A DNA stretch of 23,497 nt. Source: an uncultured archaeon. Lineage in GTDB: Archaea; Asgardarchaeota; Lokiarchaeia; Sigyniarchaeales; SOKP01. A program made the translations under genes and the position numbers. Location: NCBI GenBank assembly GCA_964583985.1, contig CAZOYD010000055.1, positions 1-23,497 of the forward strand, given 5' to 3'. How positions within the stretch are numbered: position 1 is the first letter of the stretch; each line of letters starts with the position of its first letter. The notes beneath the pieces are model-generated. The model saw only the letters and a program-made list of their open reading frames with translations. It was not told the origin of the DNA and made no database searches. This document shows, piece by piece, positions 3,269 through 21,954 of this stretch.

Positions 3269-4618
3269 ATGGCAGAAGCAATAAATATGTATGAAAAATA
3301 TTTCAAAGATCCAAAAAGGGAACCTGTATTAATAGATTATGTCCGTACTCCAATAGGAAAAAAGAAAGGTACAATAGTGCGTCATCGAGGTGATGATTTA
3401 GTAGTTCACTGTTATCAAACCATACTAAAAAGAAATGATTTTGATCCTAGGATAATTGAAGATTCAATAGTTTCATGTAACAGTCAAATTGGAGATTGTG
3501 CTCTTGATATTGGCAGAACATCAGCTTTAGCAGCACACTTACCAATAAGTGTTCCTGGAATGTCAATTAATAGGCAGTGTGCGAGTGGATCTCAAACCGC
3601 GTTATCTGCATGGCAATCAATAGCATCAGGCATCCATGATTGCGTAATATGTGGTGGTGTAGAAGTTCAAAACCGGTACCCGATTATGTCAGATTCTTAC
3701 GTGTTTGATGAAAAAGAAGGAAAGCTTGTAATGGTTGCTCCAAACAAAAAAATTCTGACAAATCCTGAGGTAGATGCAAAACTTAAAGAATACAATACGT
3801 CTTTTGCAGGTCAGATCAATTCTGCACACGTAATTGGTCAAGTTTATATGAAAAAATATGGGCAATCTCTTGATGAATATAGACATGAAGTAGATAGTTT
3901 ATCATTATTATCACATCAAAAAGCAGATAAAACTTGGGATCTAAGAGGAAAAGAAATTGAACCAATTTGGTGTCCAAAATTAAATGAGGAGACTGGAGAA
4001 CTTTTACTTGATGATAATAATAATGTGAGTCAAGATTCGAGTTTATCGGTCTTAACCGAAAGAGATGAAACCCCTCGACCAAATTCAACGATCGAAAAGC
4101 TTGCAAGTTTGAGAACCCTAATTGGAAGAAAAAGCCAAGCATTTTTAACAGCCGGGAATAGTTGTCCGACTAGCGATGGTGCTGCAGCTCAATTATGGAT
4201 GACTCGTGCCCTAGCACAAGAACTTGGTTTGAAACCACGTGCATCGATTGTTGATTGTGCAATAATTGGTTCAGATCCGGTACTTCAGCTCACTGGACCC
4301 ATAATATCGATGCCTAAAGCCTTAGCGAGAGCTGGATTGACGTTTGATGATATGTCTTTCATTGAAATTAATGAAGCTTTTAGTCCGGTTATTCATGCTT
4401 GTTGCCGGGATCTTGAATTAGATTGGAAGGATCCCCGTTTTAATCCTTGGGGCGGTGCGATTGCTCTTGGACATCCAACTGGAGCAACAGGAAGTAGATT
4501 GATTGGAACGAACTTGCATCAATTAGAACAAAGTGGTAAAGAGTTTGCCATTTCATCAATGTGTGTGGGATTGGGTATGTCTATTGCTACTATCATAAGA
4601 AATGAAAATCCAAAATAA
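3269..4618 (+). CDS. Thiolase (acetyl-CoA C-acyltransferase), canonical catalytic set
   Basis: RTPIG, INRQCASG (nucleophile Cys), TAGN...DGAAA, EINEAF, GGAIALGHPTGATG, SMCVGLGM. Confidence 0.93.
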   Translation: MAEAINMYEKYFKDPKREPVLIDYVRTPIGKKKGTIVRHRGDDLVVHCYQTILKRNDFDPRIIEDSIVSCNSQIGDCALDIGRTSALAAHLPISVPGMSINRQCASGSQTALSAWQSIASGIHDCVICGGVEVQNRYPIMSDSYVFDEKEGKLVMVAPNKKILTNPEVDAKLKEYNTSFAGQINSAHVIGQVYMKKYGQSLDEYRHEVDSLSLLSHQKADKTWDLRGKEIEPIWCPKLNEETGELLLDDNNNVSQDSSLSVLTERDETPRPNSTIEKLASLRTLIGRKSQAFLTAGNSCPTSDGAAAQLWMTRALAQELGLKPRASIVDCAIIGSDPVLQLTGPIISMPKALARAGLTFDDMSFIEINEAFSPVIHACCRDLELDWKDPRFNPWGGAIALGHPTGATGSRLIGTNLHQLEQSGKEFAISSMCVGLGMSIATIIRNENPK

Positions 4619-4740
4619 TTCTTATTTCTTATTTTTATTTCATTTTTTAGGCTATCATCTCATAGTTTAAGTATAATACTGGTAGACTTTTTTTGTTTTT
4701 TTCATGTTAAAGACATCATTACCAAAAAAGGATAAATAAA

Positions 4741-5295
4741 TCATTTAATTGATAAGGAATCAAATCCTCTATCAAAAGCATGAATATTTAATTTAACAAA
4801 TCGTGAATGAACAGAATCAGCGATTGATTTATGGATTGACTCCTTTGAGACTAAATTAGTCAGCTTAACTAGACTTCCAAGCATTATCATATTTAAAATT
4901 TTCTCATTATTTAATTCTCTAGCAATAGTACTAGCAGAAATTTTAAAAATTTTGTCAGAGTTAGTTCTATTTTCAATTAAATCTGAATTTATGAAGATTA
5001 AACCATCTTCTTTAACTTTTTGCGAAAAATAATCATATGCATTTTGACTAAATCCAATTAAAATATCTACTTTACCATCTGTAGGGTAAGATATTAGGGG
5101 ATCATTGGAAATGATTACATCACTTTTAACCCTGCTACCTCTTTGCTCTGGACCATAAGATTGCGTTTGTATTGCATTTTTGTTATCGTAGATTGCAGCT
5201 TTACCCAGAATAATGCTGGTTAAAATGACGCCCATTCCCCCAAGTCCACAAAACCTAATCTTGATCTCTTTTTTGCCGTTCTTCCCAAAACTCAC
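4741..5295 (-). CDS. korC: 2-oxoacid:ferredoxin oxidoreductase gamma subunit
   Basis: IRFCGLGGMGV, QSYGPEQRG, NMIMLG, NIHAFDRG. Start placed at GTG 5295, preceded by AAGGAG, giving a 41-nt overlap with the beta gene. Confidence 0.88.
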   Translation of the reverse strand: MSFGKNGKKEIKIRFCGLGGMGVILTSIILGKAAIYDNKNAIQTQSYGPEQRGSRVKSDVIISNDPLISYPTDGKVDILIGFSQNAYDYFSQKVKEDGLIFINSDLIENRTNSDKIFKISASTIARELNNEKILNMIMLGSLVKLTNLVSKESIHKSIADSVHSRFVKLNIHAFDRGFDSLSIK

Positions 5296-6148
5296 TTTGA
5301 CTTCTCTCCTTAAGTTTTTTATACAATTCACTAAATGATGGTTTTTTTTCCACGTCCGCGATCTCACCGACTATAATTTTTCCAGCATATTCTGCCGTAA
5401 AACATTCATTTAAGTCCTTAAAAACACGAGCAGATGTCTCATCTTGTACTTTAGGTGAATATCTAATTGTTTGATCTAGAAAATACCGTAAATTTTCTCG
5501 AGGATTTCTGAATTGTTTTTTATTAACTGGACAGGCAGATATAATTTCAATAAAGGCAAAACCTTTTTTTTGTAAACCTTTTTTCAATGATTTAATCACT
5601 TGAATTGAATGGGCAGTTGTCCATCGTGCTACATAACTAGCTCCCGCTGCTTTTGCTAAGAAAGATAAATTAAAAGCGAATTCAATATTTTGATATGGGG
5701 AAGTTGTGGTAAAGTATCCCACAGGAGTAGTAGGGGATAATTGACCTCCTGTCATACCATATGTTTCATTATTAATGCACACTACTTTAATATCGATATT
5801 TCTTCGAACAGCGTGTAGAAAATGACTCAAACCTATAGCAGCTAAATCTCCATCTCCCGTAAATACAATTACTGTTAACTCTGGATTAGTTAATTTTATT
5901 CCCGTAGCAAATGCAATTGCTCGACCATGAGTCGTATGAATACCATCAGCTTCAATATAGGCTGGTAACCTTGAGGAACAACCGATTCCTGAAACAAAAA
6001 CTAATTTGTCTTGTTCTACATTTAATTCATCAAGAGCCCTAATCATATAGTTTAATACTTGACCGTTACCACATCCGGGGCAAAAAAGAGTAGGAAGTAA
6101 ATCTTTTTTTAAATACTTTTCTCTTAACTTAATAGATGAGCTCATCAC
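5255..6148 (-). CDS. korB: 2-oxoacid:ferredoxin oxidoreductase beta (TPP-binding) subunit
   Basis: FCPGCG, SGIGCSSR, HTTHGRA, GDGD...N (TPP motif), YGMTGGQLSPTT. GGAGG SD upstream of GTG/ATG at 6148/6145. Confidence 0.93.
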   Translation of the reverse strand: MMSSSIKLREKYLKKDLLPTLFCPGCGNGQVLNYMIRALDELNVEQDKLVFVSGIGCSSRLPAYIEADGIHTTHGRAIAFATGIKLTNPELTVIVFTGDGDLAAIGLSHFLHAVRRNIDIKVVCINNETYGMTGGQLSPTTPVGYFTTTSPYQNIEFAFNLSFLAKAAGASYVARWTTAHSIQVIKSLKKGLQKKGFAFIEIISACPVNKKQFRNPRENLRYFLDQTIRYSPKVQDETSARVFKDLNECFTAEYAGKIIVGEIADVEKKPSFSELYKKLKERSQSEFWEERQKRDQD

Positions 6149-7325
6149 TAATTCTTCCTCCTTTTATTTTTTTAAATATTTCTTTTGGTTGAGGGATATT
6201 ACCCCCGATTTTATTTAATCGATCTACATCACAATTCCCTTTTGAATGTTCCTTAATTTTATGGTAAATTTGACCTAAGTTCATTTCAACAACCACGTAT
6301 CTCTTTATTTCTTGGGAAAGTTCATAAATTATATCATGAGGAAATGGCCATATTGTTATTAAACGTAAATAACCTACTTTAAAGCCTTTATTTCGCGCTC
6401 TTTCAACCGCCATAAGCGTTGTTCGTGATGATATTCCATAAGATACGAACACAACATCTGCATCATCAATATACTTTGCCTCATAAGCAATAATATCTTC
6501 TCTACTATCTGCTATCTTTTCATAAAAACGTTTTACCAATTGCTCATGTATATCCGCTCTATCTGTAACTGGATACGCCCTCCAGTCATGAGTTAATCCT
6601 GTTAAGTAAGTATGATATTTATCTCCTAATTTATCCATCTCAGGAACTTTAGTTGGATGAGTATAACCAGTTCTAAACGGATGGTACTTCTCTTTATCAA
6701 TTGTAACGGGTACTCTATTTATGATATCAACATCTTTTTGTAAAGGAATAACTAATTTTTCTCTTGTATGGGCAATGGCAGCATCAGAGAGCAAGATTAC
6801 AGGAACACGGTATTTATCGGATAAATTGAATGCCCTTATCGTTAGCCAAAGACTTTCTTGAACACTATTAGGATAAAGGGCTATAATATAATGATCTCCA
6901 TGGGTACCCCATCTTGCTTGCATAATATCTCCTTGAGCTGCCTTTGTTGGCTGACCTGTAGAAGGACCTGATCTTTGTACATCAACTATAACACACGGTG
7001 TTTCTGTCATACAAGCATAACCGATGTTTTCTTGCATAAGAGAGAAGCCGGGACCTGATGTAGCTGTCATTGTGCGATAATTATTCCAGCTTGCTCCAAT
7101 TATCGCTGCTAAGGAACTAATCTCATCTTCCATTTGTAAACAATATCCATCTTCTAAAATAGGCAGAAATTTCATCATTAGTTCTAAAATTTCAGTTGCT
7201 GGAGTAATAGGGTAACCTGCAAAAAAACGGCAATTTGACAATAATGCTCCATACACAATTGCCTCATTTCCAGTTGCGAATTGTAACTTTGGTTCTAATA
7301 GCTCATCTACTTTCGGTGCTTCCAT
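6129..7325 (-). CDS. korA: 2-oxoacid:ferredoxin oxidoreductase alpha subunit
   Basis: GNEA, FFAGYPITPATE, QMEDE, TATSGPGFSLMQE, QRSGPSTGQPT, VVEMNLGQ. Start likely ATG 7325 (MEAPK). Substrate specificity cannot be assigned from sequence alone. Confidence 0.93.
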   Translation of the reverse strand: MEAPKVDELLEPKLQFATGNEAIVYGALLSNCRFFAGYPITPATEILELMMKFLPILEDGYCLQMEDEISSLAAIIGASWNNYRTMTATSGPGFSLMQENIGYACMTETPCVIVDVQRSGPSTGQPTKAAQGDIMQARWGTHGDHYIIALYPNSVQESLWLTIRAFNLSDKYRVPVILLSDAAIAHTREKLVIPLQKDVDIINRVPVTIDKEKYHPFRTGYTHPTKVPEMDKLGDKYHTYLTGLTHDWRAYPVTDRADIHEQLVKRFYEKIADSREDIIAYEAKYIDDADVVFVSYGISSRTTLMAVERARNKGFKVGYLRLITIWPFPHDIIYELSQEIKRYVVVEMNLGQIYHKIKEHSKGNCDVDRLNKIGGNIPQPKEIFKKIKGGRISDELIY

Positions 7326-9001: not shown

Positions 9002-10951
9002 TCAAAAATCTTCAGTAATCGCTTTAATCTCTTCGATAAAGGGATTAGCATAAGAGTGCCACATCTGTTTTGTAATGTCATCACCTAGAGTTTGTTCTAT
9101 AAGCTCTTCACCTTTCATTAAATGTTTAAGTGCTAAATCATAATCTTCCAACTCCCTATAACAAATTCCAAGTTTAATGTGTGTTTGATAAATATACCAA
9201 CTATTTGGATTCAATTCTATCGCCTTTTGAAACTTGCTTATTGCTGATTTATGATCATTGAAAGCCATAAGAATTTCACCATATGAGTCTTGATAAATTT
9301 CATTATTTGGCTCTCGTTCTATGAGATCCTGGATTACATTTAAAGCTTCTTCCCTTTTATTTAAATATTGATACCATAGCGCTTTGTAATTGAGAAGATC
9401 GTTGTCTTTGGGGTATTTTTTAGTTAATTCGTCTATTATTTTGAATCCTCCAATAAGATCTCGCATATTTTTTAGAATAGATGCTTTTTTCAGTTTGAGA
9501 TCTTTTTCATTTTCAGGAAAATCTCTTAGCATTCCATCAAAAAGGATTAAAGCTTCATTGTATTTATCAAAATAAAGTAGAATCCTGCTTTTAATATAAT
9601 ATAGATTGAGTTCTTTAGGGTTTTGTTCAATGGCGTTATTTATTTCTTCCAAAGTTTCATCAAAACTCTTTGCAGGGTCTATATAAAAGCTATGCGTAGT
9701 TATTTTTTCGGACTGCTCTTGTGCTTCAGAAGAACTGAAGATCTGGATTTCTTTCCATATTAATCCTTCTAATTTGTCATAAGTATCTAATAGTTTTCTT
9801 TCTTTCTCAATTTTGTATGCTAAATAGTTGATATAATCTGGTAAGAATATTTTTAGAGCTGGTCTTAAACCCGGTTTAAACAAATTTTCAATAATCTCCT
9901 CTAATATTGCATTAACAATACTTTCCATGGTTAATGGAGAGGTTCCTTCTGATATTTCTTCATTTAACTTATTTAAATATGTAAATTTAATAATATGCTC
10001 TTCCACAATTACATTAAGCATCCGTTCTAATTTCCCATTTACTTGAAAATAAAAAGTATTTCCATTGGCTAAATCTAATTTAAAAAATTTTATTGGAAAA
10101 ATATTTTCTTCAACAATACAAAGAATAACAAATTTAAGTTTAATCAGATTGATGTCGTACTTTTTAGAAAACGCCTCTGGAGAAAAATAATGAGGAAATT
10201 GGTCTGGATGATTTATAGAGAGATAAAGTAAAGCTTTATCGAAATTTTTTTCATTTTTTAAAGTGGATTTGACCTTTTCATATGGTAACTTTAACTTATT
10301 GTTTAAAAACCGAAATTTGATATCAATATCTTCTATTTTATACTCTTTAAAGAAAGTGTTTGTGCTTTTAGTAATTTCATTTATCCGTTTACTTTCTTCA
10401 TCTAAGATTGATTGTCTATCTAAATTATACAGTTTTAGTATATTTGAGTATTCAATTCTACCTAATCGAGTAATTCTATATTTTCTCTCTTCCTTTCTTA
10501 TAAACTCCTTGTCTAATAACAAATTCAAATTTTTAGATAAAGAAGATTGATTGATCGAAAGAGGAGACTCAGAAAAATCCGACCACTTACAATAATTATT
10601 GTTAGACACCATCCAAAGAATCCAATGGTCATAATTTCTTGTTCTACGTATAGCTTCGGGAGGAAAACTTATTTTTCTTATTTTTTGCTTTGCTTCAGAT
10701 AACTTATAAAATCTATCCTTACCCTTAGAGGTAATTTTATACTGATTGAAAGTGCTCTTTTCAACATAGTCTTTATCCCTTAGTCTTTTTAGGTAGTTTG
10801 ATAATGTGGAATGCGTAATTTTTTCTTTCAGGTTTGCCCATGTGCACACATCATTATTGTTCAAAATCCATAATATGATAAATTCGTAGTTAGGCTTACC
10901 AAAAGTAGGTTTTATAATCTCTTCAGGAGGATAATTACATGTAGAAACCAC
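9002..10951 (-). CDS. Tandem winged-helix + C-terminal TPR protein (paralog 1), function unknown
   Basis: Two N-terminal wHTH-like repeats (STLSNYLKRL..YVEK..YKITSKG; SSLSKNLNLL..FIRK..YRITRLG). C-terminal TPRs (e.g. YQDSYGEILMAF..AISKFQKAIELNP). GTG start with AAGGAG SD. Collinear paralog at 19224-21155. Confidence 0.8.
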   Translation of the reverse strand: MVSTCNYPPEEIIKPTFGKPNYEFIILWILNNNDVCTWANLKEKITHSTLSNYLKRLRDKDYVEKSTFNQYKITSKGKDRFYKLSEAKQKIRKISFPPEAIRRTRNYDHWILWMVSNNNYCKWSDFSESPLSINQSSLSKNLNLLLDKEFIRKEERKYRITRLGRIEYSNILKLYNLDRQSILDEESKRINEITKSTNTFFKEYKIEDIDIKFRFLNNKLKLPYEKVKSTLKNEKNFDKALLYLSINHPDQFPHYFSPEAFSKKYDINLIKLKFVILCIVEENIFPIKFFKLDLANGNTFYFQVNGKLERMLNVIVEEHIIKFTYLNKLNEEISEGTSPLTMESIVNAILEEIIENLFKPGLRPALKIFLPDYINYLAYKIEKERKLLDTYDKLEGLIWKEIQIFSSSEAQEQSEKITTHSFYIDPAKSFDETLEEINNAIEQNPKELNLYYIKSRILLYFDKYNEALILFDGMLRDFPENEKDLKLKKASILKNMRDLIGGFKIIDELTKKYPKDNDLLNYKALWYQYLNKREEALNVIQDLIEREPNNEIYQDSYGEILMAFNDHKSAISKFQKAIELNPNSWYIYQTHIKLGICYRELEDYDLALKHLMKGEELIEQTLGDDITKQMWHSYANPFIEEIKAITEDF

Positions 10952-11126: not shown

Positions 11127-11363
11127 ATGGTTGAAGCTTATGAAAAACTTATTTTTGAAAATGAACTAATTTTTATAGAAGAACTACTCCCTGTTAAACA
11201 AAAACTGATTACAATAAAAGAAACAAACCAAAAAAATGATGCACAATTAGAAAAGAGGAAATTACTTAAGAAATGGAAAAAATCAGAAGGGAAATATTAT
11301 TTAAATACAAAGAACTTAGCTAAAACATACACTAATTTCTTAGGCGTTGGGTTTATCGCCTAA
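11127..11363 (+). CDS. Small hypothetical protein (78 aa), copy 1
   Basis: AGGTGA SD upstream of ATG, duplicated with frame conserved, followed by hairpin and T-tract. Confidence 0.7.
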   Translation: MVEAYEKLIFENELIFIEELLPVKQKLITIKETNQKNDAQLEKRKLLKKWKKSEGKYYLNTKNLAKTYTNFLGVGFIA

Positions 11364-11583: not shown

Positions 11584-11802
11584 ATGGTTGAAGCTTATGA
11601 AAAACTTATTTTTGAAAATGAACTAATTTTTATAGAAGAACTACTCCCTGTTAAACAAAAACTGATTACAATAAAAGAAACAAACCAAGAAAATGATACA
11701 CAATTAGGTAAGACGCAATTACTTAAGAAATGGAAAAAATCAGAAGGGAATTATTATTTAAATCCTAAAAAATTCGAATTTAGTTTGAAAAATTTAAAGT
11801 GA
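11584..11802 (+). CDS. Small hypothetical protein (72 aa), copy 2, with a different C-terminus
   Basis: Identical to copy 1 for 35 codons, shares LLKKWKKSEG.YYLN, same SD. Confidence 0.65.
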   Translation: MVEAYEKLIFENELIFIEELLPVKQKLITIKETNQENDTQLGKTQLLKKWKKSEGNYYLNPKKFEFSLKNLK

Positions 11803-12138: not shown

Positions 12139-12675
12139 ATGATATTAAATTTTAAGATTACTGTCATCGGTGATGGAATGGTTGGCAAGACCTCAGTCAT
12201 TAAAAAATTCACAAAAGGCATGTTTAAGAAGGATTATATTAAAACTATTGGAGCGCAATTTTTCGTATTTGATCAAGAAATTAATGAGGATAAAATTAGA
12301 TTATTATTTTGGGATATTGCTGGTCAAGTTGACTATAATTTTTTACGACCCTCTTTTTACAATAAAAGTGACGCGGCTATAATTATCTATTCTCTGGAAG
12401 ATAATGATCTTGGAGAAAAAAGTTTTAATCATATTGTCGATTGGTATGCTGATATCTCAAAATACTGTAGTAAGATTCCTCTCGTTATATTTGCGAATAA
12501 AGTAGATTTAGTGGACCAAAACAATTTTGATGATTCTAAAATCCAAAAATTAGTAGATAGATACGACTTTCTTGGGTTTTATAAGACAAGTGCTAAAACT
12601 GGGGCTGGAATTAATGAAGCCTTTAATGCAATTATTAAAAAACTATATTATAATTATAAAAATCTAAGTGCTTAA
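12139..12675 (+). CDS. Rab-like small GTPase (copy 1)
   Basis: G1 GDGMVGKT, G2 KTIG, G3 WDIAGQ, G4 NKVD, G5 TSAK. 178 aa, no C-terminal Cys. Confidence 0.95.
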   Translation: MILNFKITVIGDGMVGKTSVIKKFTKGMFKKDYIKTIGAQFFVFDQEINEDKIRLLFWDIAGQVDYNFLRPSFYNKSDAAIIIYSLEDNDLGEKSFNHIVDWYADISKYCSKIPLVIFANKVDLVDQNNFDDSKIQKLVDRYDFLGFYKTSAKTGAGINEAFNAIIKKLYYNYKNLSA

Positions 12676-12747: not shown

Positions 12748-15700
12748 TCAAGAACTCTCTTTTTCAGTCTGTTCTACGCTTTTAAGTAGATCTTCCTTTC
12801 CAAGTTTACGAAATATTACTTTAGCCTCCTGTAATAACGAAACTATTTTTTCTCTTGCAGACGACACGTAATTTTTCTTAAGAAAAAGAGCATAACCATA
12901 AGTTAGCTTCCCCAAGTATTCGGTAATTTCAGGTTTTAATTCTACTAATTCTTTAGCCATCCTTAAGGATTCTTGATACAATAACTCAGCATCATCAAAA
13001 CGATTCATTTTATCCAACAATTCGGTCAATTGAACCGATATTCTCAACGCTCGTGTTTTCATATCTGGTGTTTGTTCCATTTTTCCAAAAAGATTCATGA
13101 CTTCTCTATATTTTGATTCTGCTTTTTCATGCTTTTCAGGAGGACCATACAAATGTAAAGAAGCTGCAAGAAAAAAGATGCACTCCCCTAAATTAACCAT
13201 TAATCCTGGCGTTTTCTTTACTTCTTCTTCATAGATCTGAATAGTTTCATCCATCAAGGATTCGATTTCATCAATTTTATCATTCTTTCTTGATTTGATC
13301 TGTGATGATAATGCTTGGGCTAGTTTATGTTGTACATTTGCTATGTTTATGCGCATCTCTGGTAATGTTTCATTCATTTTTCTTAAAATAACCAAAGCAT
13401 CACGTAAAAGTTCTTCAATCTCACTCAATTTTTCCGTATTCCCTAACAACGTTAATACATCTGCCAGTTTTACTTCAATATTTACAATATCTGAATTAGA
13501 AGTAGTGGATAATTGTGAATTTGTTCTAAGCATGATGAGAACTTCTTTATATAAAATTTCCGCTTGAATTAATTTATCTTTAGTTCTGAATTGAGTTGAT
13601 AATTCTGCCAATGAAAACAAGCTTTTGAGATATTCTGTTTTAACATCAGGAAAATCAGAAGCAAGTTTTCTTTGGATATTAATCGCGTTTTTAAAATGAT
13701 CTTCTGCTTCAATCAAATTTTCTCTGGTTCTTAAAATAGTTAATACAAACGCTAATCCATACTCGATACGTGCAAAAAGGGCTTGAAATTGAGGTGTATC
13801 TATTAAATTTGTCCTTGCGTAAGCTAAAGCTTCTCGCAAAATTAATTCTACTTCATTGTATTTCTGATTACCTTCACCTAATAATATGATATTTGCCAGT
13901 TTATAGGATGTATCCATGATTGCAATTTCAATACCGGGCATGTCGCGTTGATTTTTCAAATATGTAAGAGCATCTCTACAATAGATTTTTGCTTCTTTTA
14001 CCTTCTCCTTTTTAGCTGATTGCTGATACAGTTCAACTAACGCAATCTTGGTTTTATATAAATTCATTTCTGCATTTGGAATATTGCTTATATTTTCTTT
14101 AAAAATTGATAACGCTTCGATTAAACATTTCTCTGTTTCTGCAAATTTCAATGGATTTCTTAACCTTAGTAAAAAGGATGAAAAATTCAATAATGATATT
14201 GCTAGATCACCCTTGCTCCCGGGAAATTCTTTAATCCGTTTTCTAAACATATCAATAGAATTAGTATAAAATTTTTCTGCTTCAATTAGTTTCTCAGGAA
14301 CATTAATCTTACTTAGAAGATCTGCTAAAACTCCCAATGTCCGGGCGAGATTAATCTCGGCTAAGGGATTGTGTTCAATTTGGTCTCTATTTATTTCTAC
14401 AGTATCACGCAATAAATTTTCCGCTTCTGCAAAACGTTGTACACCGCCTAAATTGATTAAAATATTAGCTAGATCGGTTGCTGTAGTCGTTATATCAATT
14501 TTGAGTCCATGACTGGTTTTATTTAATTCTTGTTGGATGGATAATGCCTCTCGATAACACTTTTCTATCTCACTTAAATTCGTTGAATCTCCCATCATTC
14601 TTAAAATGCTTCCCAAACTGGTCAACGCATTTGAAAGATTTACCTTTAGGTCTTTCGATTCTTGGGTAAAATCTCGGTAAATTTGTATGCTTTCCCTTAA
14701 TAAAGATTCTGCCATTTTCATGGATTGAATTCCACCTTTACTTGCAATAAAATTAGCATAATAGTATAAAATATGTGCCATGAGTCCACGTATTTGGGGA
14801 TTCAATTCCACTAATGCTTTGGTAGTTTTGAGTGCATCTTGATATAAACTTAAAGTTTGATTGTAGTAATCTTCTCGACCAAAATTGTGTAGAAAATTTG
14901 CATAGTTTAGTTTTATCATCGCAAGATTGATTTTTAGTTCCGGAATTTGATCCATTAGATCCTCTTGAATTTTTATGGATTCTTGATAAAGGGATATGGC
15001 TTCTGTGAGATTTTTCGCTCCACCTTTTATCATTATTAATTCTGCGAGAGTTACGTTCATTGATGCAATACTTAATCGTGATCGTGGCAAGTATTGAGCT
15101 TCTTCTCTCATTATATTAATAATTTGATGATAAAGATCTTCAGCTTGATCTAATTTCTCTGTCCCTCCTATTATCCTAAACAATTGTGCAAGTGTAAACA
15201 AGTTTTGAACTTTTAATTTTGAAGTAGATATCCCCATTTCTTCTAATCTGGTAGTTATAGATAATGATTTTCTAATTAATGATTCTGCTTCACTTAATTT
15301 TTCTTTATCACCGTAATCTTTTATAAAAGTAGCTAATTGTATGAGATTATAGGCAAGACCTTCCAATGCAGAAGGCATTTTCTCCGAAATATCCTCAAAT
15401 ATCATTAAAGCTTCTCTTTGGAGTGTTTCAGCTTCTTTAAAATAGTGCTCTCCTTGAGTCCTCAAATGAATTGCTAACGAATATAATGAAGAAGCTAAAC
15501 CTCTTTGCATTGACGGTTGAGTTTTTACAATCTCTCTTTGGATCTTAATCGCTTCTCGATACATTTCTTCAATATCTTGAGATTTTTCTACTTTTTTCTG
15601 AAGTACTAATACGTTAGCATATTGTACTAATGATTCTACTAAAGCAGTTTTTGCTCCAGGGATAAAAGTTGCAATTTCTTTATGAATTGTCAAAGCCTCT

Positions 15701-18282
15701 CGACATAAAGTCTCAATTTCAGGCATTTTTTCAGCTTCTCCGTACTTTTGCAACAATCTTGATAAGGATAACATGGAACGAGCTAAATTAAACTTTAAAC
15801 GGGAATCACCCTCAGCTAATTTCTTATTAATTGCATATGATTCACGGATTAATGACTCTGCTTCTCTTAAATTAGTTTCACCTTGGAAAATTAATAAGAG
15901 ATTAGCTAATGCATCAGCAGTTTTAGCAATTTCCCGTTGATCTTCAATCGAATTATTATCATATTTTCTCTTCATTTGTAATGCGTTTCTGAAGAGGATC
16001 TCTGCTTCTTGTAAATTTATTTTGCCCCCCACATTCATTAAGAGGAACGCGAGTGAATCAGAAGCTTGAATTATGCGTTTTCGAGACAATGAAGTTAATT
16101 CAGCAACTTTATCATAATGCTCTAATATCCTTTTATATATCTTTTCGGCCAATGCATTATTTTCCGGACCGCCAAATCTTGCGAGGTTATTGGCAAATAG
16201 TATAAGTATGCCAGTATCATGAGAAGAAATAACCTCACTTGTATAAACCGTTCTTATCCATCGAGTTGGATCTTCTAATAACCCCGCCCAATCAAAAAAT
16301 AAGCATATCGCTGGCGTCAATTCCTGTAATTTTAAATGATCGAATTTCTCAGCTATATTAGCACAAGCTGAAATGTTTGCATACTCTTCCAATAAAAAAG
16401 TAGCATTTGAAGGTTTATATATGCCCGATCTCATCTCATTTTGAAAGGAATTTATCTCTTTTAAATAAAAATCAATAGCCTCTATTAAAGTCTTTCTTGT
16501 AATCTCATCTGAGGAAATCATCTGTCGTATTGACTCGATGCTACGATATCGACCTCCTGATCTTATTAACAAACCATTAGTTAAAGCGGGGGCCAATAAT
16601 TCAGTAAACTTATCTCCAATCTTAAATTGAGCAACTTTTGGGGATAAACCAGCCGGAAAAGCTAGTGCTATTTGTAACGCTAAGCGAGAATCTTCCGGTA
16701 AAAGCTCAAACGTCGTATTTATTACAGCTTTAGAGGCTTTTTCTGGATCTTCTAATAAACTTTTATATAAGTTCTCTTTCCCCTCATCTGATAATTTTGC
16801 TGCTCGACGACCAAGAATTCTTATAGAACCGGGATTTGTGGAAAGCCGATTTAATAACTTTTCTCCCTTTTCTGAGATCGCCTCTGCTTTTGATTCTAAA
16901 ATGAAAAGCTCTCGTGCTTCTTCATAATTAAGAGGTCCTAAGTTAATAGTTAGTGCATTTACGTTATCTAAAAAATCAGATCCGACTTCTTCGCTAATAG
17001 ATGTTCTTGTTGTTAAAATGAGTGCACCATTACCCTCTAATTTCATGAGTAATTGGAATAGGGTGTCTAAAAACTCAGTCTTGAGTTCCTTTTCTTGCCT
17101 TAAAGGATCCTCAACATTATCTGCAATAATTAAAGCTCGACGAGCGCTAACCTCATTAAAAATTTCGTCTTTTTCTGTTATTTCCTCAGATAATCCTAAT
17201 GCGTCTCTGATGCCAAAAATTAAGGAAGACGCTCCCTTCTGATTTCTTAAATCCACAAAAATAGACGTACTAAAAGTATTATTCATGCCTTGTTCTTGTC
17301 GTATGTTCTGAGCAGCAGCTCGTGCTAATTGAGTTTTTCCAATACCCGCAGGTCCAATAATTTCAACTAAAACTGCCTTACTATTGACTAATGCTTTATT
17401 TATCCGTTCTATTTCGATAATCCTTCCTTGAAATCCAGATTCTGGGGCAGGGATGAAATCACTTGATTCTAATAAAGCCAAAAATGCATCCACTGCAGAA
17501 TGAGCTGTTATTCCTGTTCCAACTGCATAAGGAATTACACGTACTCCGATTCGCCTCAATCGTTTCTGTAGTTCAAATTCAGCATCTGGTAAAAGAGCAA
17601 ACACTTCCAATTCATCAACGAAATTTCTATGTAAATATTCTAAATTTTTTAAAATGTAGGTATCAGTTATCGAATAACCAACAAAAATTATCGCCCATCG
17701 TAAAAAAATTTGTTTAAGGACTTCTTGATATGCTTTATCATCTTCAAGCGCTTGATATTGTTCTTTTGTAAACACCATGAGATGAGGTTTAGTAGGATCA
17801 CCATGAATCTTAAATAAAAATTTTCTCTGTTGGAGATTCATCAGCACATCTTTATAATCTCGATATATGATTTCTTCAAGCGTAAATCCACAATGATCTT
17901 CCAAAATTGTATCAAAATTAGTAGTTACTACACCAGGTAGATCATCGCGGAGTTCAGACACTACTTTATATCTTTCAGGCATATCACCAGAGATCTCTGG
18001 TTTTAAGGCTTCTTGAAGGAAATTCATAAAAACTTGAATATCTCCTGAAGCTATCGTCAATTTAGAAGCAATATCAGATAATTCCTCAAAATTTGTATCC
18101 CATTCTAAAGAATTAATTCTTTCCTTTAGATTATCGGAACAATTGATTTTTTCGGAAATTGCTTTTAATAATCGCGCCCAAGATGGAACTCCTAATGCAG
18201 CGCTTACACCAGCGCCGAAAAATGGTAAAAGAGTTCCTGATTTTTTTGCTCTAAATAGTTCTTCTGGAACTGTAACTTTCAT
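12748..18282 (-). CDS. SIR2-like NADase + STAND (NB-ARC/AfsR-like) ATPase + long TPR-like repeat array; NLR/Avs-like immune receptor candidate
   Basis: SIR2: FFGAGVS, PSW, TTNFD, KIHGD, FVGYS. STAND: FQGRIIE, Walker A GPAGIGKT, Walker B LIIADNVE, sensor-1 LILTTR, LGPL..EEARELF, FPAG. Then ~24 helical repeats of ~48 aa. ATG 18282 (in-frame TTG 18285). Confidence 0.9.
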   Translation of the reverse strand: MKVTVPEELFRAKKSGTLLPFFGAGVSAALGVPSWARLLKAISEKINCSDNLKERINSLEWDTNFEELSDIASKLTIASGDIQVFMNFLQEALKPEISGDMPERYKVVSELRDDLPGVVTTNFDTILEDHCGFTLEEIIYRDYKDVLMNLQQRKFLFKIHGDPTKPHLMVFTKEQYQALEDDKAYQEVLKQIFLRWAIIFVGYSITDTYILKNLEYLHRNFVDELEVFALLPDAEFELQKRLRRIGVRVIPYAVGTGITAHSAVDAFLALLESSDFIPAPESGFQGRIIEIERINKALVNSKAVLVEIIGPAGIGKTQLARAAAQNIRQEQGMNNTFSTSIFVDLRNQKGASSLIFGIRDALGLSEEITEKDEIFNEVSARRALIIADNVEDPLRQEKELKTEFLDTLFQLLMKLEGNGALILTTRTSISEEVGSDFLDNVNALTINLGPLNYEEARELFILESKAEAISEKGEKLLNRLSTNPGSIRILGRRAAKLSDEGKENLYKSLLEDPEKASKAVINTTFELLPEDSRLALQIALAFPAGLSPKVAQFKIGDKFTELLAPALTNGLLIRSGGRYRSIESIRQMISSDEITRKTLIEAIDFYLKEINSFQNEMRSGIYKPSNATFLLEEYANISACANIAEKFDHLKLQELTPAICLFFDWAGLLEDPTRWIRTVYTSEVISSHDTGILILFANNLARFGGPENNALAEKIYKRILEHYDKVAELTSLSRKRIIQASDSLAFLLMNVGGKINLQEAEILFRNALQMKRKYDNNSIEDQREIAKTADALANLLLIFQGETNLREAESLIRESYAINKKLAEGDSRLKFNLARSMLSLSRLLQKYGEAEKMPEIETLCREALTIHKEIATFIPGAKTALVESLVQYANVLVLQKKVEKSQDIEEMYREAIKIQREIVKTQPSMQRGLASSLYSLAIHLRTQGEHYFKEAETLQREALMIFEDISEKMPSALEGLAYNLIQLATFIKDYGDKEKLSEAESLIRKSLSITTRLEEMGISTSKLKVQNLFTLAQLFRIIGGTEKLDQAEDLYHQIINIMREEAQYLPRSRLSIASMNVTLAELIMIKGGAKNLTEAISLYQESIKIQEDLMDQIPELKINLAMIKLNYANFLHNFGREDYYNQTLSLYQDALKTTKALVELNPQIRGLMAHILYYYANFIASKGGIQSMKMAESLLRESIQIYRDFTQESKDLKVNLSNALTSLGSILRMMGDSTNLSEIEKCYREALSIQQELNKTSHGLKIDITTTATDLANILINLGGVQRFAEAENLLRDTVEINRDQIEHNPLAEINLARTLGVLADLLSKINVPEKLIEAEKFYTNSIDMFRKRIKEFPGSKGDLAISLLNFSSFLLRLRNPLKFAETEKCLIEALSIFKENISNIPNAEMNLYKTKIALVELYQQSAKKEKVKEAKIYCRDALTYLKNQRDMPGIEIAIMDTSYKLANIILLGEGNQKYNEVELILREALAYARTNLIDTPQFQALFARIEYGLAFVLTILRTRENLIEAEDHFKNAINIQRKLASDFPDVKTEYLKSLFSLAELSTQFRTKDKLIQAEILYKEVLIMLRTNSQLSTTSNSDIVNIEVKLADVLTLLGNTEKLSEIEELLRDALVILRKMNETLPEMRINIANVQHKLAQALSSQIKSRKNDKIDEIESLMDETIQIYEEEVKKTPGLMVNLGECIFFLAASLHLYGPPEKHEKAESKYREVMNLFGKMEQTPDMKTRALRISVQLTELLDKMNRFDDAELLYQESLRMAKELVELKPEITEYLGKLTYGYALFLKKNYVSSAREKIVSLLQEAKVIFRKLGKEDLLKSVEQTEKESS

Positions 18283-18643
18283 CAAAATAACAACGTTTTA
18301 TAACTATAATTTTTTTTATTTGGACTTATTACGTTGTTTAAAACGATTATAAAATTTATTACTTTAGATTTTTTTTAAGTCATATTTTATGGACTTTATG
18401 CTGATTATTAATTCCAACGCTATAGAATTAACAATTATAATAAATATGAAATCATTCAAGCTCTATCCTATAGTTCTCATCCAGTATATGACGGTTCTTT
18501 TTGAATTTTATTAGATATCTGGCTCACGCATCTAATTCTTTTAATCTAACTGGCGATGATTAAATTAAACGGTTGTTTGATCAAACTTTTGGTTTTACCA
18601 ATCTTTATATTAACCTTCACTATATTTCCTTTGTGGTATATGT

Positions 18644-19183
18644 ATGCTAGAACAAGATCTTTACAAGTTTAAAATTGTATTAATTGGAAATGGTGGTGTA
18701 GGGAAAACATCCTTGATTAAACGTTATACACAAAATTCATTCCAAAAACAATACATAAGAACCATTGGAGCTCAATTTTCTTTTCATGAGAATGAAATTG
18801 AAAATGATCACGTAAAATTGATTTTATGGGACATCGCTGGTCAAGACAACTTTATTTTTATGCGATCACTGTTTTTCAAAGATAGTAAGGCAGCTATTAT
18901 TGTATATAGCCTTGAAATGAACAAATTAGGTAAAAAGAGTTTAGATGATATAAAAATTTGGTACGACGATATAAGAAAACATTGTGGAAGTATACCAGTT
19001 GCTGTTTTCGCGAATAAAGTGGACTTAGCATATGAAAATGTTGTCGATATTGAAAAAGTAAAAGATATCATTGGAAAAAATGATTTTCTTGGATATTTCG
19101 TTACCTCAGCAAAAACTGGTCAAGGAGTAATAGAAGGCTTTGAATCTATCTACGAGCAAATGTATTATAAGTATCGAACTTAG
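18644..19183 (+). CDS. Rab-like small GTPase (copy 2)
   Basis: GNGGVGKT, RTIG, WDIAGQ, NKVD, TSAK. 179 aa. TATA-like CTTTATAT about 35 nt upstream. Confidence 0.95.
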   Translation: MLEQDLYKFKIVLIGNGGVGKTSLIKRYTQNSFQKQYIRTIGAQFSFHENEIENDHVKLILWDIAGQDNFIFMRSLFFKDSKAAIIVYSLEMNKLGKKSLDDIKIWYDDIRKHCGSIPVAVFANKVDLAYENVVDIEKVKDIIGKNDFLGYFVTSAKTGQGVIEGFESIYEQMYYKYRT

Positions 19184-19223
19184 GTATTATCTAGTTTTGT
19201 TAGAAAAATAAGTAGTATGATAA

Positions 19224-21155
19224 TTAATTGCGCTTGAATTCCTTTAATTCTTCAATAAAGGGCTCAACGATCGATAACCATTTTTGTTTAGATTCCTCAT
19301 TGACTTCACTTTTTTCAACCGCTTCTTTCCCTCTGAGTAAATATTCCATCGCAATCTCTAAATTTCCAATTTGTCTGCGACATATACCTATTTTAATTAA
19401 GGTTTGGAACTCATACCAATTATCTTTACCCAAATCAAGAGCTTTTTGAAATGCATTTATTGCTTTCTCATATTCTTCAAAGGCCATTAATATTTCGCCA
19501 TACGTATCATGATAAGCTGCATTATCTGGTGCTAAATCTATAATTCCCCGAATAGTGGATATAGCTTCACCTTTTCGATCCAAATATTGGAGCCAATAAG
19601 CTTTATAACTAATAAGATCGAGATCATCAGGATACTCCGTTATCAAATCCTCAATAATTTCTAGCCCTTCCTCTATATCTCGTTTTTCTTTTAATATATA
19701 AGCGATTTTAATCTTAATCTCTTTTCTCTTACCGGGGAATTTATCTATCATTTCATCATATAAACCAAGTAACGCATCATATCTATTAAAATAGACCAAT
19801 ATGTTTTCCTTAGATCGATAATGTTCAAGATTGTAAGGATCTTTCTTGATATTTTTTTCAATTTGCTTTACCTTTTCTTCAACATTTATTCCTTCTTTCA
19901 CGTCTGGATCTGTTATCGCAATCTTTTTTACTTCTTTCCAGATTAATCCCTTTAACTTGTCATTACTTCCCCTAAAAATCCTTTTACGCTCAAATTTAAA
20001 TGCTAAATATCTAATATATGATGGCAACAAAATCTTTAACATTTCCCGAAGACCGCCATTAAAGATCTTGCCACAAATATCGTCTAATATTGAATTTATA
20101 ATAACATCCAAATTTTCTAATAGTTCTTCTCGTAATTCATTTTCATACATTCTATTTAAATACGTAAATTTTGTAATTTGTTCCTCAACACTAGCTTTTA
20201 ACATTTTTTCGAGCTTGTCGTCTTCCTGTAGAAAAAAACACGATCCATTTGTACTTTCGATCTTGAAAAACTTGATTGAATATAACGACTTTTCAATAAT
20301 TTGGATGACAAAAAAATCTAATGTTGTGAGTGCGATGTCATATTCTAACGAAAAATCTTCTTTGGTAATATGGTTAGGAAATTGACTTGGATGGTTATAT
20401 GAAAGGAATAATATGATTTTATAAAAATCGTTTTCAGTCAGGAGATCCTTCACTTTTGCATGTGAAAGCTTTAATAAGTAATTGAGAAACCGAAAACGAA
20501 GGTCATTATCCTGAATATTATAATTTTTAAAAAAATCGACTGTTTTTGCCGTTAAATCTTTAATTCTATTACTCTCAAATTCTAAAATAGATTGTCGATC
20601 AAGTTCATACTTTTTGAGCATTCTCGAATATTCTGATTTCCCTAGTTGTGTTATGTGATAATTATGTTTCTCATCTTTTCGAATATATTCATTTTCTTCG
20701 CTCATTAAATTATTGAGTGCTTTTGAAAGTGAAGATTGGTTAATAGATACGGGTTTTTCAAGAAAATCGCTCCACGTGAGAAAATTATTATTATACGCCA
20801 TCCATAAAATCCAGTCCTCATAATTCCTTCCCGATTGTAACATCTGCCGAGGTGGATAATTCACTTTTCTCTTCTTACTTTTTGTTTGTGATAATTCATA
20901 AAATCGATCTTTACCACTTAAAGAAATGCGATATTCATTATATTCAGTACGTTCTACATGTTTTATTGCTAAAAGTTTCTTTAGATAAAGAGAAAGTGTT
21001 GAAGGTTTTATTATCTTCTTAAAATCGCCCCAACTGCAATTTTCATTATTATTGAGCATCCATAAAATTATCAACTCAAAATCAGCCTTGCCAAAAATAG
21101 GATTTGCGACTTCTTCAGGCGGATAGTTTATCGGAGTATCCATGAGGGTCATCAT
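19224..21155 (-). CDS. Tandem winged-helix + C-terminal TPR protein (paralog 2), function unknown
   Basis: Collinear with 9002-10951: NYPPEE..P.FGK, IILW.LNNN, SINQSSLSK, LDRQSIL, FRFLN, NHP.QFP, KFTYLN, YKA.W.QYL, D[ST]YGEILMAF. Exact start (21155/21152/21143) uncertain. Confidence 0.8.
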   Translation of the reverse strand: MMTLMDTPINYPPEEVANPIFGKADFELIILWMLNNNENCSWGDFKKIIKPSTLSLYLKKLLAIKHVERTEYNEYRISLSGKDRFYELSQTKSKKRKVNYPPRQMLQSGRNYEDWILWMAYNNNFLTWSDFLEKPVSINQSSLSKALNNLMSEENEYIRKDEKHNYHITQLGKSEYSRMLKKYELDRQSILEFESNRIKDLTAKTVDFFKNYNIQDNDLRFRFLNYLLKLSHAKVKDLLTENDFYKIILFLSYNHPSQFPNHITKEDFSLEYDIALTTLDFFVIQIIEKSLYSIKFFKIESTNGSCFFLQEDDKLEKMLKASVEEQITKFTYLNRMYENELREELLENLDVIINSILDDICGKIFNGGLREMLKILLPSYIRYLAFKFERKRIFRGSNDKLKGLIWKEVKKIAITDPDVKEGINVEEKVKQIEKNIKKDPYNLEHYRSKENILVYFNRYDALLGLYDEMIDKFPGKRKEIKIKIAYILKEKRDIEEGLEIIEDLITEYPDDLDLISYKAYWLQYLDRKGEAISTIRGIIDLAPDNAAYHDTYGEILMAFEEYEKAINAFQKALDLGKDNWYEFQTLIKIGICRRQIGNLEIAMEYLLRGKEAVEKSEVNEESKQKWLSIVEPFIEELKEFKRN

Positions 21156-21408: not shown

Positions 21409-21954
21409 ATGCCTAATAATCGATTCCAATTTAAAATAGCTGTAGTGGGATATGGTGCGGTCGGAAAGACTTCATTGATTAGCCAGTTTACAAAAACATC
21501 ATTTAAAGAGGAATATATCAAGACAATTGGGGCTCAATTCTCCGTATATGAAAAATCAATTAACGATGATAAAATTAAACTCTTATTTTGGGACATCGCA
21601 GGTCAGGATGATTTCAATTTCTTGCGGCCCTCTTTTTTCAATAATAGCAAAGCCGCTATCATAGTATTTAGCTTAGAAGAAAATGAGCTTGGAAAAGTGA
21701 GTTTTGAACACGTTAAAAATTGGCACGAAGATGTTAAAAAGTACTGTGGAGATATACCCATTATCTTATTCGCAAATAAGGTTGACTTAGTTGATGAGAC
21801 TCAGATTAATAGAGATCAGCTTAACAAACTTGTTAAAAAATTAAAATTCTTAAATTATCGCATTACGTCCGCTAAAACCGGAGAGGGCGTGGTTGAAGCT
21901 TTTAATGAAATCATTGAAATATTATATCGTAATGCAATAGTCACAATCCAATAA
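21409..21954 (+). CDS. Rab-like small GTPase (copy 3)
   Basis: GYGAVGKT, KTIG, WDIAGQ, NKVD, TSAK. 181 aa, no C-terminal Cys. Confidence 0.95.
   Translation: MPNNRFQFKIAVVGYGAVGKTSLISQFTKTSFKEEYIKTIGAQFSVYEKSINDDKIKLLFWDIAGQDDFNFLRPSFFNNSKAAIIVFSLEENELGKVSFEHVKNWHEDVKKYCGDIPIILFANKVDLVDETQINRDQLNKLVKKLKFLNYRITSAKTGEGVVEAFNEIIEILYRNAIVTIQ

Follow-up and report, generated by a model that had tools for sequence, protein, structure and literature searches.

A rare SIR2-STAND-TPR protein of an Asgard archaeon resembles the antiviral NLR-like receptors of prokaryotes

The STAND proteins of prokaryotes were surveyed in 2026 and sorted into 589 clades, 198 of which are associated with defence; the sensors of the latter mostly consist of TPR-like repeats (PMC12803255). 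Avs1-4, Avs7 and other TPR antiviral STANDs combine an effector, a STAND module and a long TPR-like α-solenoid sensor, the TPR sensors of Avs1-4 and Avs7 bind conserved phage proteins, and the distribution of these receptors is sporadic and transfer-prone (PMC12803255). In Avs5 (AVAST type 5; EfAvs5, 9jap, and PaAvs5, 9nc9) an N-terminal SIR2 domain precedes the STAND module in one polypeptide, and the N141A (SIR2), K379A (Walker A) or D426A (Walker B) substitution abolishes phage defence by EfAvs5 (PMC11897194). NLR-type systems have already been reported in Asgard archaea (PMC11291487). The subject of the present analysis is a predicted protein of 1,845 residues, hereafter the receptor, which is encoded on the reverse strand at positions 12748-18285 of contig CAZOYD010000055.1 (the window, a stretch of 23,497 nt from an uncultured archaeon) and in which a SIR2 domain, a STAND NTPase and an array of TPR-like repeats follow one another. 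The receptor looks like a rare archaeal representative, so far uncharacterised, of antiviral STAND (NLR-like) receptors that are already known, and not like a new kind of system. By analogy with those receptors, it probably acts, as the product of a single gene, as an NLR-like sensor that depletes NAD and triggers abortive infection in an Asgard archaeon.

The receptor gene is a single unbroken frame that starts with TTG at 18285, with an alternative ATG one codon on, at 18282, and ends with a stop codon at 12748-12750. The database copy of the protein has 1,844 residues, which fits the ATG start. The DNA around the gene has a GC content of 31-33%, and an open reading frame (ORF) of 1,845 codons is far beyond chance in DNA of this composition. 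All motifs named in the initial annotation of this DNA were located in the protein and re-translated from the window; each was found at its assigned place and the frame was uninterrupted. The proposed three-part layout of SIR2 domain, STAND module and repeat sensor was likewise borne out by Pfam and repeat analysis. All coordinates given below for parts of the receptor gene refer to the reverse strand.

The SIR2_2-type effector domain occupies residues 1-270 (nt 17476-18285), as defined by Pfam SIR2_2, PADLOC SIR2 models, PDB sequence matches and conservation. The Pfam SIR2_2 model (PF13289) matched residues 119-251 over its full length, scoring 68.9 bits against a cut-off of 24.5 (E 6.4e-19). 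The SIR2 matches in PADLOC-DB 2.0 were to LmuA-SIR2 (4.7e-27), Dsr1 (2e-21) and ThsA (4e-15), and a search of PDB sequences returned solely defence SIR2 NADases, namely KomC (2e-8), ThsA and DSR2 (2e-5). The domain contains the NAD-binding loop GAGVS (residues 24-28; nt 18202-18216), a TTNFD motif that includes Asn123 (residues 121-125; nt 17911-17925) and an HGD motif that begins with His161 (residues 161-163; nt 17797-17805). In the PDB sequence search His161 was aligned to KomC H146, the residue altered in the H146N entry 9xvc. Residues G24, G26, S28, T121, N123, D125, H161, G162 and the motif GYS-x-x-D are invariant in the seven closest relatives, and across a set of 24 SIR2 plus P-loop proteins N123 is invariant and H161 is at least 90% conserved. 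This alignment and conservation agree with the earlier claim that the catalytic Asn and His are intact. Judged from the enzymes it matches, the domain would be of the defence-NADase type and would hydrolyse NAD+. DSR1/DSR2, ThsA and KomC share the SIR2_2-type catalytic domain and the identical Asn and His with the receptor, and DSR2 moreover couples its SIR2 domain with a large helical sensor by which a phage protein is bound; however, these proteins are without a STAND NTPase and their matches to the receptor are limited to residues 6-254. A predicted SIR2 homodimer, modelled from two copies of residues 1-275, scored 0.00, which is evidence neither way.

The STAND NTPase core, comprising the NBD, a helical domain and a winged helix, extends over residues 271-600 (nt 16486-17475), as judged from Pfam, an AlphaFold2 (AF2) model, Foldseek and VIA-align. 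Within it lie FQGRIIE (residues 285-291; nt 17413-17433), the Walker A motif GPAGIGKT (residues 311-318; nt 17332-17355), the Walker B motif LIIADN (residues 385-390; nt 17116-17133), the sensor-1 motif TTR (residues 425-427; nt 17005-17013), NPGSIR at the GxP position (residues 484-489; nt 16816-16836), FPAG (residues 543-546; nt 16648-16659) and RYRSIESIR at the MHD-equivalent position (residues 579-587; nt 16525-16551). Eight of the residues in the core, G311, G316, K317, D389, T425, P485, R579 and Y580, do not vary among the seven closest relatives. The winged helix is joined to the repeats by a helical arm or HD2-like linker (residues 601-712; nt 16150-16485), which is all-helical in the AF2 models and through which the alignments to Apaf-1, 6mfv and MalT run. 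The AF2 models of residues 1-720 and 272-720 had pLDDT values of 83.7 and 86.9, respectively, and in them the STAND module looks complete, with Walker A and B motifs, NBD, helical domain and winged helix.

On sequence profiles the receptor itself scores higher for NACHT (36.1 bits; cut-off 26.7) than for NB-ARC (30.7 bits; cut-off 23.5), the two matches overlapping each other and nSTAND1 on residues 279-475, and the weak NB-ARC match covers 172 of the 248 model positions. Among the 24 SIR2 plus P-loop relatives, NB-ARC was matched in 19 and NACHT in 12. The structural comparisons separate the two classes. When the nucleotide-binding oligomerisation domain (NOD) was aligned with VIA-align, which is independent of Foldseek, Z scores of 25.0 for the Pyrococcus STAND-TPR protein 6mfv, 22.0 for MalT (8bob), 21.2 for NRC2 and 20.6 for Apaf-1 were obtained over 300-411 residues, whereas the NACHT proteins NLRP9 and NLRP3 reached 12.3 and AVAST5 reached 11.5. 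Foldseek searches with the NOD alone ranked Apaf-1, CED-4, 6mfv and many plant NLRs first (TMq 0.52-0.64 for the Apaf-1, CED-4 and plant NLR matches), placed Avs4 at rank 37 and Avs3 at rank 44, and gave no NACHT protein among the matches listed, to rank 49. In a search of residues 275-720 against a set of 5.8 billion proteins, the sole match outside the family was an AfsR-like BTAD-NB-ARC-TPR protein (E 1e-3). The initial annotation had judged the motifs to be AfsR/NB-ARC-like and not NACHT-like; the Z scores, the counts among relatives and the AfsR-like match agree with this, and the structural models support an NB-ARC/AP-ATPase/MalT-like NOD.

Apaf-1, CED-4 and the plant NLRs share with the receptor the NBD-HD1-WHD(-HD2) fold, the TT/SR arginine and the GxP motif, of which P485 is present. 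The receptor differs from them in its weak NB-ARC profile match and at the MHD-equivalent position of the winged helix, which reads RYR, without His. The TTR motif is also present in EfAvs5 (PMC11897194), so that TTR alone is not diagnostic of the STAND class. 6mfv and MalT are the best structural matches to the NOD together with the arm, and 6mfv is also archaeal and also has a TPR sensor; these two proteins are nevertheless not immune effectors, are without SIR2 and are only 11-17% identical to the receptor in sequence.

The sensor follows as an array of 23 consecutive TPR-like repeats (residues 713-1811; nt 12853-16149), which was delimited with an iterated self-HMM (a hidden Markov model built from the array itself). 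Each unit was found with an E-value between 1e-14 and 1e-19, and the spacing is 44-51 residues, mostly exactly 48; in the DNA the repeats are spaced at multiples of 144 nt. A repeat sensor of about 1150 residues had been claimed previously, and the array, at about 1,100 residues, comes close to this length. Pfam TPR_10 (45.8 bits; cut-off 27.5) and TPR_12 (38.3 bits; cut-off 30.1) matched the last repeats only, and in a phmmer search against the PDB the repeat region matched kinesin light chain TPRs. From its sequence the array can thus be described as an unusually regular, extended variant of the TPR_10/TPR_12 (kinesin-light-chain) type, with a unit of 48 residues in place of the canonical 34 or 42. 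A short C-terminal tail (residues 1812-1845 and the stop codon; nt 12748-12852) completes the protein. The three full-length orthologues are about 80% identical in the SIR2 domain, about 70% in the NOD and about 62% in the TPRs, with 56-61% in the last half of the TPRs, a gradient that would fit a conserved effector joined to a faster-evolving sensor.

No characterised system was matched over the full length of the receptor when PADLOC, NCBIfam and the PDB sequences were searched, and the matches obtained were essentially to the SIR2 domain. PADLOC-DB 2.0 includes Avs5 models. In this database a weak mad8 P-loop match was the sole one outside the SIR2 domain, and no Avs-named model was matched at E≤1 by the receptor or appeared among the families listed for its relatives; as far as PADLOC-DB 2.0 goes, this supports the expectation that the protein might fall outside the named Avs models. 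In NCBIfam nothing came near its cut-off, Dsr1 (NF041818) reaching 22.2 bits against 1,400 on residues 6-131 only. When the structural model of residues 1-720 was searched with Foldseek, EfAvs5 (9jap; E 4e-13) came first, followed by AVAST5 filaments and then by DSR2, ThsA and Apaf-1.

Avs5 is, by analogy, the best functional counterpart of the receptor. Both proteins have the N-terminal SIR2 domain followed by STAND, and both have the Walker A and B motifs and the TTR sensor-1 arginine (PMC11897194). However, of the three features by which membership was judged, the receptor shares with Avs5 this domain order but neither detectable sequence similarity nor the type of sensor. Avs5 chains are absent from its PDB sequence matches at E≤1. 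Avs5 proteins are about 770-830 residues long with an unusually short sensor (PMC11897194), compared with 1,845 residues and 23 TPRs in the receptor, and the Avs5 sensor clusters with the SAMD9 family (PMC12803255) whereas that of the receptor consists of TPR-like repeats. The Z score of 11.5 for AVAST5 against the NOD is also well below the 20.6-25 of Apaf-1, MalT and 6mfv, a comparison that is confounded by conformational state. Avs5 is, furthermore, known from bacteria and the receptor from Asgard archaea. The resemblance to Avs1-4 and Avs7 is in architecture; their effectors are mostly nucleases, proteases or Cap4, and no sequence match between them and the receptor was found.

The architecture as such is not unusual. 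Bacterial SIR2-NB-ARC-TPR proteins have the identical three-part architecture and their SIR2 domains match the same PADLOC SIR2 models; examples are WP_305927703.1 (1,120 residues), encoded on a Bacillus mycoides plasmid, and the metagenomic proteins P0013 and P0006. The hundreds of STAND clades catalogued in the 2026 survey (PMC12803255) point the same way. The bacterial proteins differ from the receptor in their length of about 950-1,250 residues, their fewer repeats and their sequence identity of 19-25%. They are annotated solely as 'tetratricopeptide repeat protein', no characterisation of them was found, and they gave no PADLOC model match beyond the SIR2 domain. The PADLOC candidate PDC-S65 was matched by six of 24 distant relatives, and in the member shown (P0006, residues 1-288) the match is to the SIR2 domain; neither the receptor nor the four fully scanned close relatives (P0008, P0009, P0010 and P0028) matched it.

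The host genome (G000; 3.8 Mb in 138 contigs) is that of an Asgard archaeon, since it contains five actin-family ORFs and a Vps28 homologue, which are Asgard hallmarks; the attribution made in the initial annotation is therefore correct. The actin-family ORFs are full-length and score 162-441 bits against the Pfam Actin model (G000:C1:25549-26661, C116:713-1822, C18:53780-54856, C3:34165-35112 and C12:25500-26594); against eukaryotic actin the scores reach 440 bits. Besides the Vps28 homologue of this genome (G000:C27:28189-28713), no match to Vps28 was obtained in any of 14 control genomes. The same genome encodes three more SIR2_2 ORFs of 813, 761 and 1,358 residues (G000:C17:45712-46092, reverse; C133:2462-2830, reverse; C94:5959-6333, forward), none of which is a close paralogue of the receptor and none of which has an NB-ARC match.

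The receptor gene is rare. Among 1.84 billion representatives clustered at 50% identity, only four clusters span both SIR2 and STAND at E<1e-30, namely the receptor itself and three others at 29-32% identity. Orthologues at 66-75% identity were found on a metagenome contig from JGI (P0003), in a second genome of the same genus (G007) and on a contig binned to Ca. Hodarchaeum mangrovi (JAEOUE010000317.1), the last of which was recovered by a contig scan seeded with an alignment of three orthologues and lies on a 5-kb contig whose end cuts the gene. Within the genus, the gene was present in two of the 24 genomes searched, that of the window and G007. A 31%-identical relative in a genome of another family of the order (G026; 55% GC) is split by an in-frame TAA inside its SIR2 domain (G026:C219; locus L013, 7940-8467 and 8480-11722, forward) and could be a pseudogene or an assembly error.

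The receptor of the window is 73% identical to the Hodarchaeum-binned copy, and its identity to the G007 and Hodarchaeum copies spans 68-73%. The class I aminoacyl-tRNA synthetase of the window, by comparison, is 60% identical to that of G007 and 39% identical to the best Hodarchaeum match. As far as these identities go, the contrast points to either horizontal transfer among Asgard lineages or a mis-binned contig. The window, the orthologue loci and the locus in the Hodarchaeum-binned genome all have a GC content of 31-35%, so that GC cannot separate transfer from mis-binning.

The four orthologue loci have no neighbour in common. In G007 (locus L012) an AMP-binding enzyme lies upstream of the gene, a 293-residue leucine-rich repeat (LRR) protein is encoded on the same strand 105 bp downstream (16376-17257, forward) and is followed by a UvrD-like helicase (17264-19414, reverse), and an NYN nuclease-like protein (4247-4744, reverse) and a 257-residue TIR_2-domain protein (5344-6117, forward) are encoded nearby. 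The helicase also matches GajB and DRT-helicase models, which are not specific among UvrD helicases. The JGI contig has a DUF6011 gene downstream of the orthologue and, upstream of it, a gene that does not encode a GTPase, and on the Hodarchaeum-binned contig an unannotated 299-residue protein is encoded beside the orthologue. The gene for the relative P0008 (32% identity) is followed, 2.7 kb downstream, by a complete abortive-infection pair, AbiEi/AbiEii (locus L033, 6132-7746, reverse), on an archaeal-looking contig that also encodes methenyl-H4MPT cyclohydrolase.

In the window the receptor gene stands between tandem modules, each of which consists of a winged helix-turn-helix (wHTH)-TPR protein and a divergently transcribed Rab-like GTPase; metabolic genes lie upstream. 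The wHTH-TPR proteins, of about 645 residues each, are encoded at 9002-10951 and 19224-21155 (both reverse), and the three Ras/Rab-like GTPases of the window at 12139-12675, 18644-19183 (Ras2) and 21409-21954 (all forward). The two wHTH-TPR proteins are 46% identical paralogues of a multi-copy family, members of which were found in each of the 15 genomes of the genus that were searched (at most 14 matches in one genome). The order of the wHTH-TPR and GTPase modules is syntenic in three relatives (G014, G015 and G008), and the loci in G014 and G015 keep the order thiolase, TPR1, Ras1 ... TPRx, Ras3-like. The slot that is filled by the receptor and Ras2 in the window holds instead a gene for a LuxE-like acyl-protein synthetase in both G014 (L030, 6191-7462, reverse) and G015 (L031, 4933-6204, forward), together with a HepT/MNT toxin-antitoxin pair (HepT-like RNase and nucleotidyltransferase; 6281-6700 and 6675-7088, both reverse) in the latter. 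This site, between Ras1 and the wHTH-TPR gene that follows, is thus a variable hotspot, and Ras2 of the window has no close orthologue in the relatives (best 59%).

A specific relationship of the receptor TPR array to the neighbouring wHTH-TPR proteins was considered and not supported (BLASTP E 2.2), and no evidence was found for a functional link to the Rab-like GTPase, there being no Ras-like neighbour at the G007, JGI or Hodarchaeum-binned orthologues. The unshared neighbours, the differently filled slot and the lack of a close orthologue of Ras2 indicate that the receptor gene behaves as accessory cargo in a variable slot, without a conserved pairing with a GTPase. No direct or inverted repeats that could delimit a mobile element were found on either side, only weak repeats internal to the TPRs being detected, and PADLOC gave no match for the two neighbours that were scanned, Ras2 and the wHTH-TPR protein at 19224-21155. 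Elsewhere in the window, the wHTH-TPR gene and Ras1 are separated by a spacer of 22% GC, in which two near-identical ORFs of 78 and 72 residues (11127-11363 and 11584-11802, forward), both starting MVEAYEKLIFENELIF, are arranged as a tandem duplication at a distance of about 457 bp; no Pfam model matched either of them.

The mechanism envisaged for the receptor is modelled on ThsA, DSR2, KomC, Avs5 and Avs1-4/7, from which it would take over the NADase activity, the sensing of a ligand by the TPRs, the oligomerisation and the role in defence. At rest, the STAND NTPase would keep the protein closed, monomeric and ADP-bound. Autoinhibition would then be lifted when the 23-repeat TPR solenoid binds a viral protein, or one of another mobile element, and the receptor would be driven to oligomerise by exchange of the nucleotide at its Walker A/B and TTR motifs. 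The N-terminal SIR2 domains, thereby brought together, would hydrolyse NAD+ (activation by proximity), and the infected cell would stop growing or die before the invader replicates. Such a scheme would draw on features that the protein has, namely its order of domains, catalytic and nucleotide-binding residues that are intact, a fold like that of Apaf-1 and MalT, and the repeats; its distribution is patchy and free of conserved context.

Several points weigh against this assignment. The defence role, the NAD+ depletion and every mechanistic step rest on analogy, and no known-defence-system model matches the protein beyond its SIR2 domain, the weak mad8 match aside. Because defence-associated and non-defence STAND clades are intermingled (PMC12803255), a function cannot be read from the fold by itself. 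In the window the gene is immediately flanked not by defence genes but by those for Rab-like GTPases and wHTH-TPR proteins, and the apparent transfer could instead reflect a mis-binned 5-kb contig. Nucleotide handling may also differ, because RYR replaces the MHD His of NB-ARC proteins.

The receptor could alternatively be a cellular signalling or regulatory STAND, in which the TPRs sense an endogenous protein or state, possibly via the Rab-like GTPase at 18644-19183, and the SIR2 domain modifies a host target or tunes NAD+. The receptor gene is divergent from that GTPase gene and so takes the position of the wHTH-TPR proteins in both flanking modules, the best structural matches include the non-immune MalT and Pyrococcus 6mfv, and the intermingling of defence and non-defence STAND clades (PMC12803255) would be compatible with signalling. 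However, the GTPase pairing is absent at all three orthologues, Ras2 itself is without a close orthologue in the relatives, the neighbouring wHTH-TPR proteins show no relationship to the TPR array of the receptor, and the syntenic loci of relatives carry GTPase/TPR modules without the receptor gene. Absence from most of the searched genomes of the genus is, moreover, atypical of a core regulator, and the SIR2 subtype best matches defence NADases; a signalling role is thus considered unlikely. Nor is the assignment to defence tied to NAD+ depletion. Some SIR2-family proteins are ADP-ribosyltransferases, and the features that are established here, the catalytic Asn and His and the NAD loop, would serve NAD-dependent transfer as well, so that the SIR2 domain of a defence STAND might instead ADP-ribosylate a target of the host or the virus, or produce a nucleotide signal. 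This variant is rather unlikely, as the characterised close matches ThsA, DSR2, KomC and Avs5 are all NAD+ hydrolases (PMC11897194), and at the orthologue loci there is no conserved adjacent partner gene able to read a signal. That the receptor is an inactive relic, a decaying accessory gene, might be suggested by its rarity and by the in-frame TAA of the G026 relative. The 5.5-kb frame is, however, intact in three genomes or contigs, encoding 1,845-1,846 residues with the key residues kept; an intact frame with catalytic and nucleotide-binding residues retained at 66-75% identity implies purifying selection and makes decay highly improbable. The reading of the receptor as an NAD-depleting abortive-infection sensor is accordingly the one that is favoured here.

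The initial annotation had also raised a possible relevance to the origins of eukaryotic NLRs, which is not borne out by the present comparisons. The best structural match of the NOD is an archaeal STAND-TPR protein, MalT is about level with NRC2 and Apaf-1, and the NB-ARC profile match is weak; since the eukaryotic NB-ARC proteins are no closer than prokaryotic MalT and 6mfv, no specific eukaryotic affinity is shown. It is very unlikely that the receptor represents an Asgard-centred NB-ARC lineage specifically related to the ancestor of the eukaryotic NB-ARC receptors (Apaf-1 and plant R proteins), or a Rab-like-GTPase-gated form of immune signalling that foreshadows eukaryotes.

Overall, as the architecture is already well catalogued in prokaryotes, the value of the receptor lies in its host lineage and subfamily and not in a new principle; what makes it of interest is that its host is an Asgard archaeon, that the subfamily is rare and that the sensor is a regular array of 23 units. 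If the receptor is active, archaea, and among them the Asgard group, would have an example of a SIR2-armed NLR-like receptor with a switch of the Apaf-1/MalT type. STAND-gated immunity by NAD depletion would then extend beyond bacteria to those prokaryotes that are most closely related to eukaryotes. The regular solenoid of 23 TPRs of 48 residues would, in addition, be a tractable sensor with which to identify the Asgard-virus protein that is recognised.

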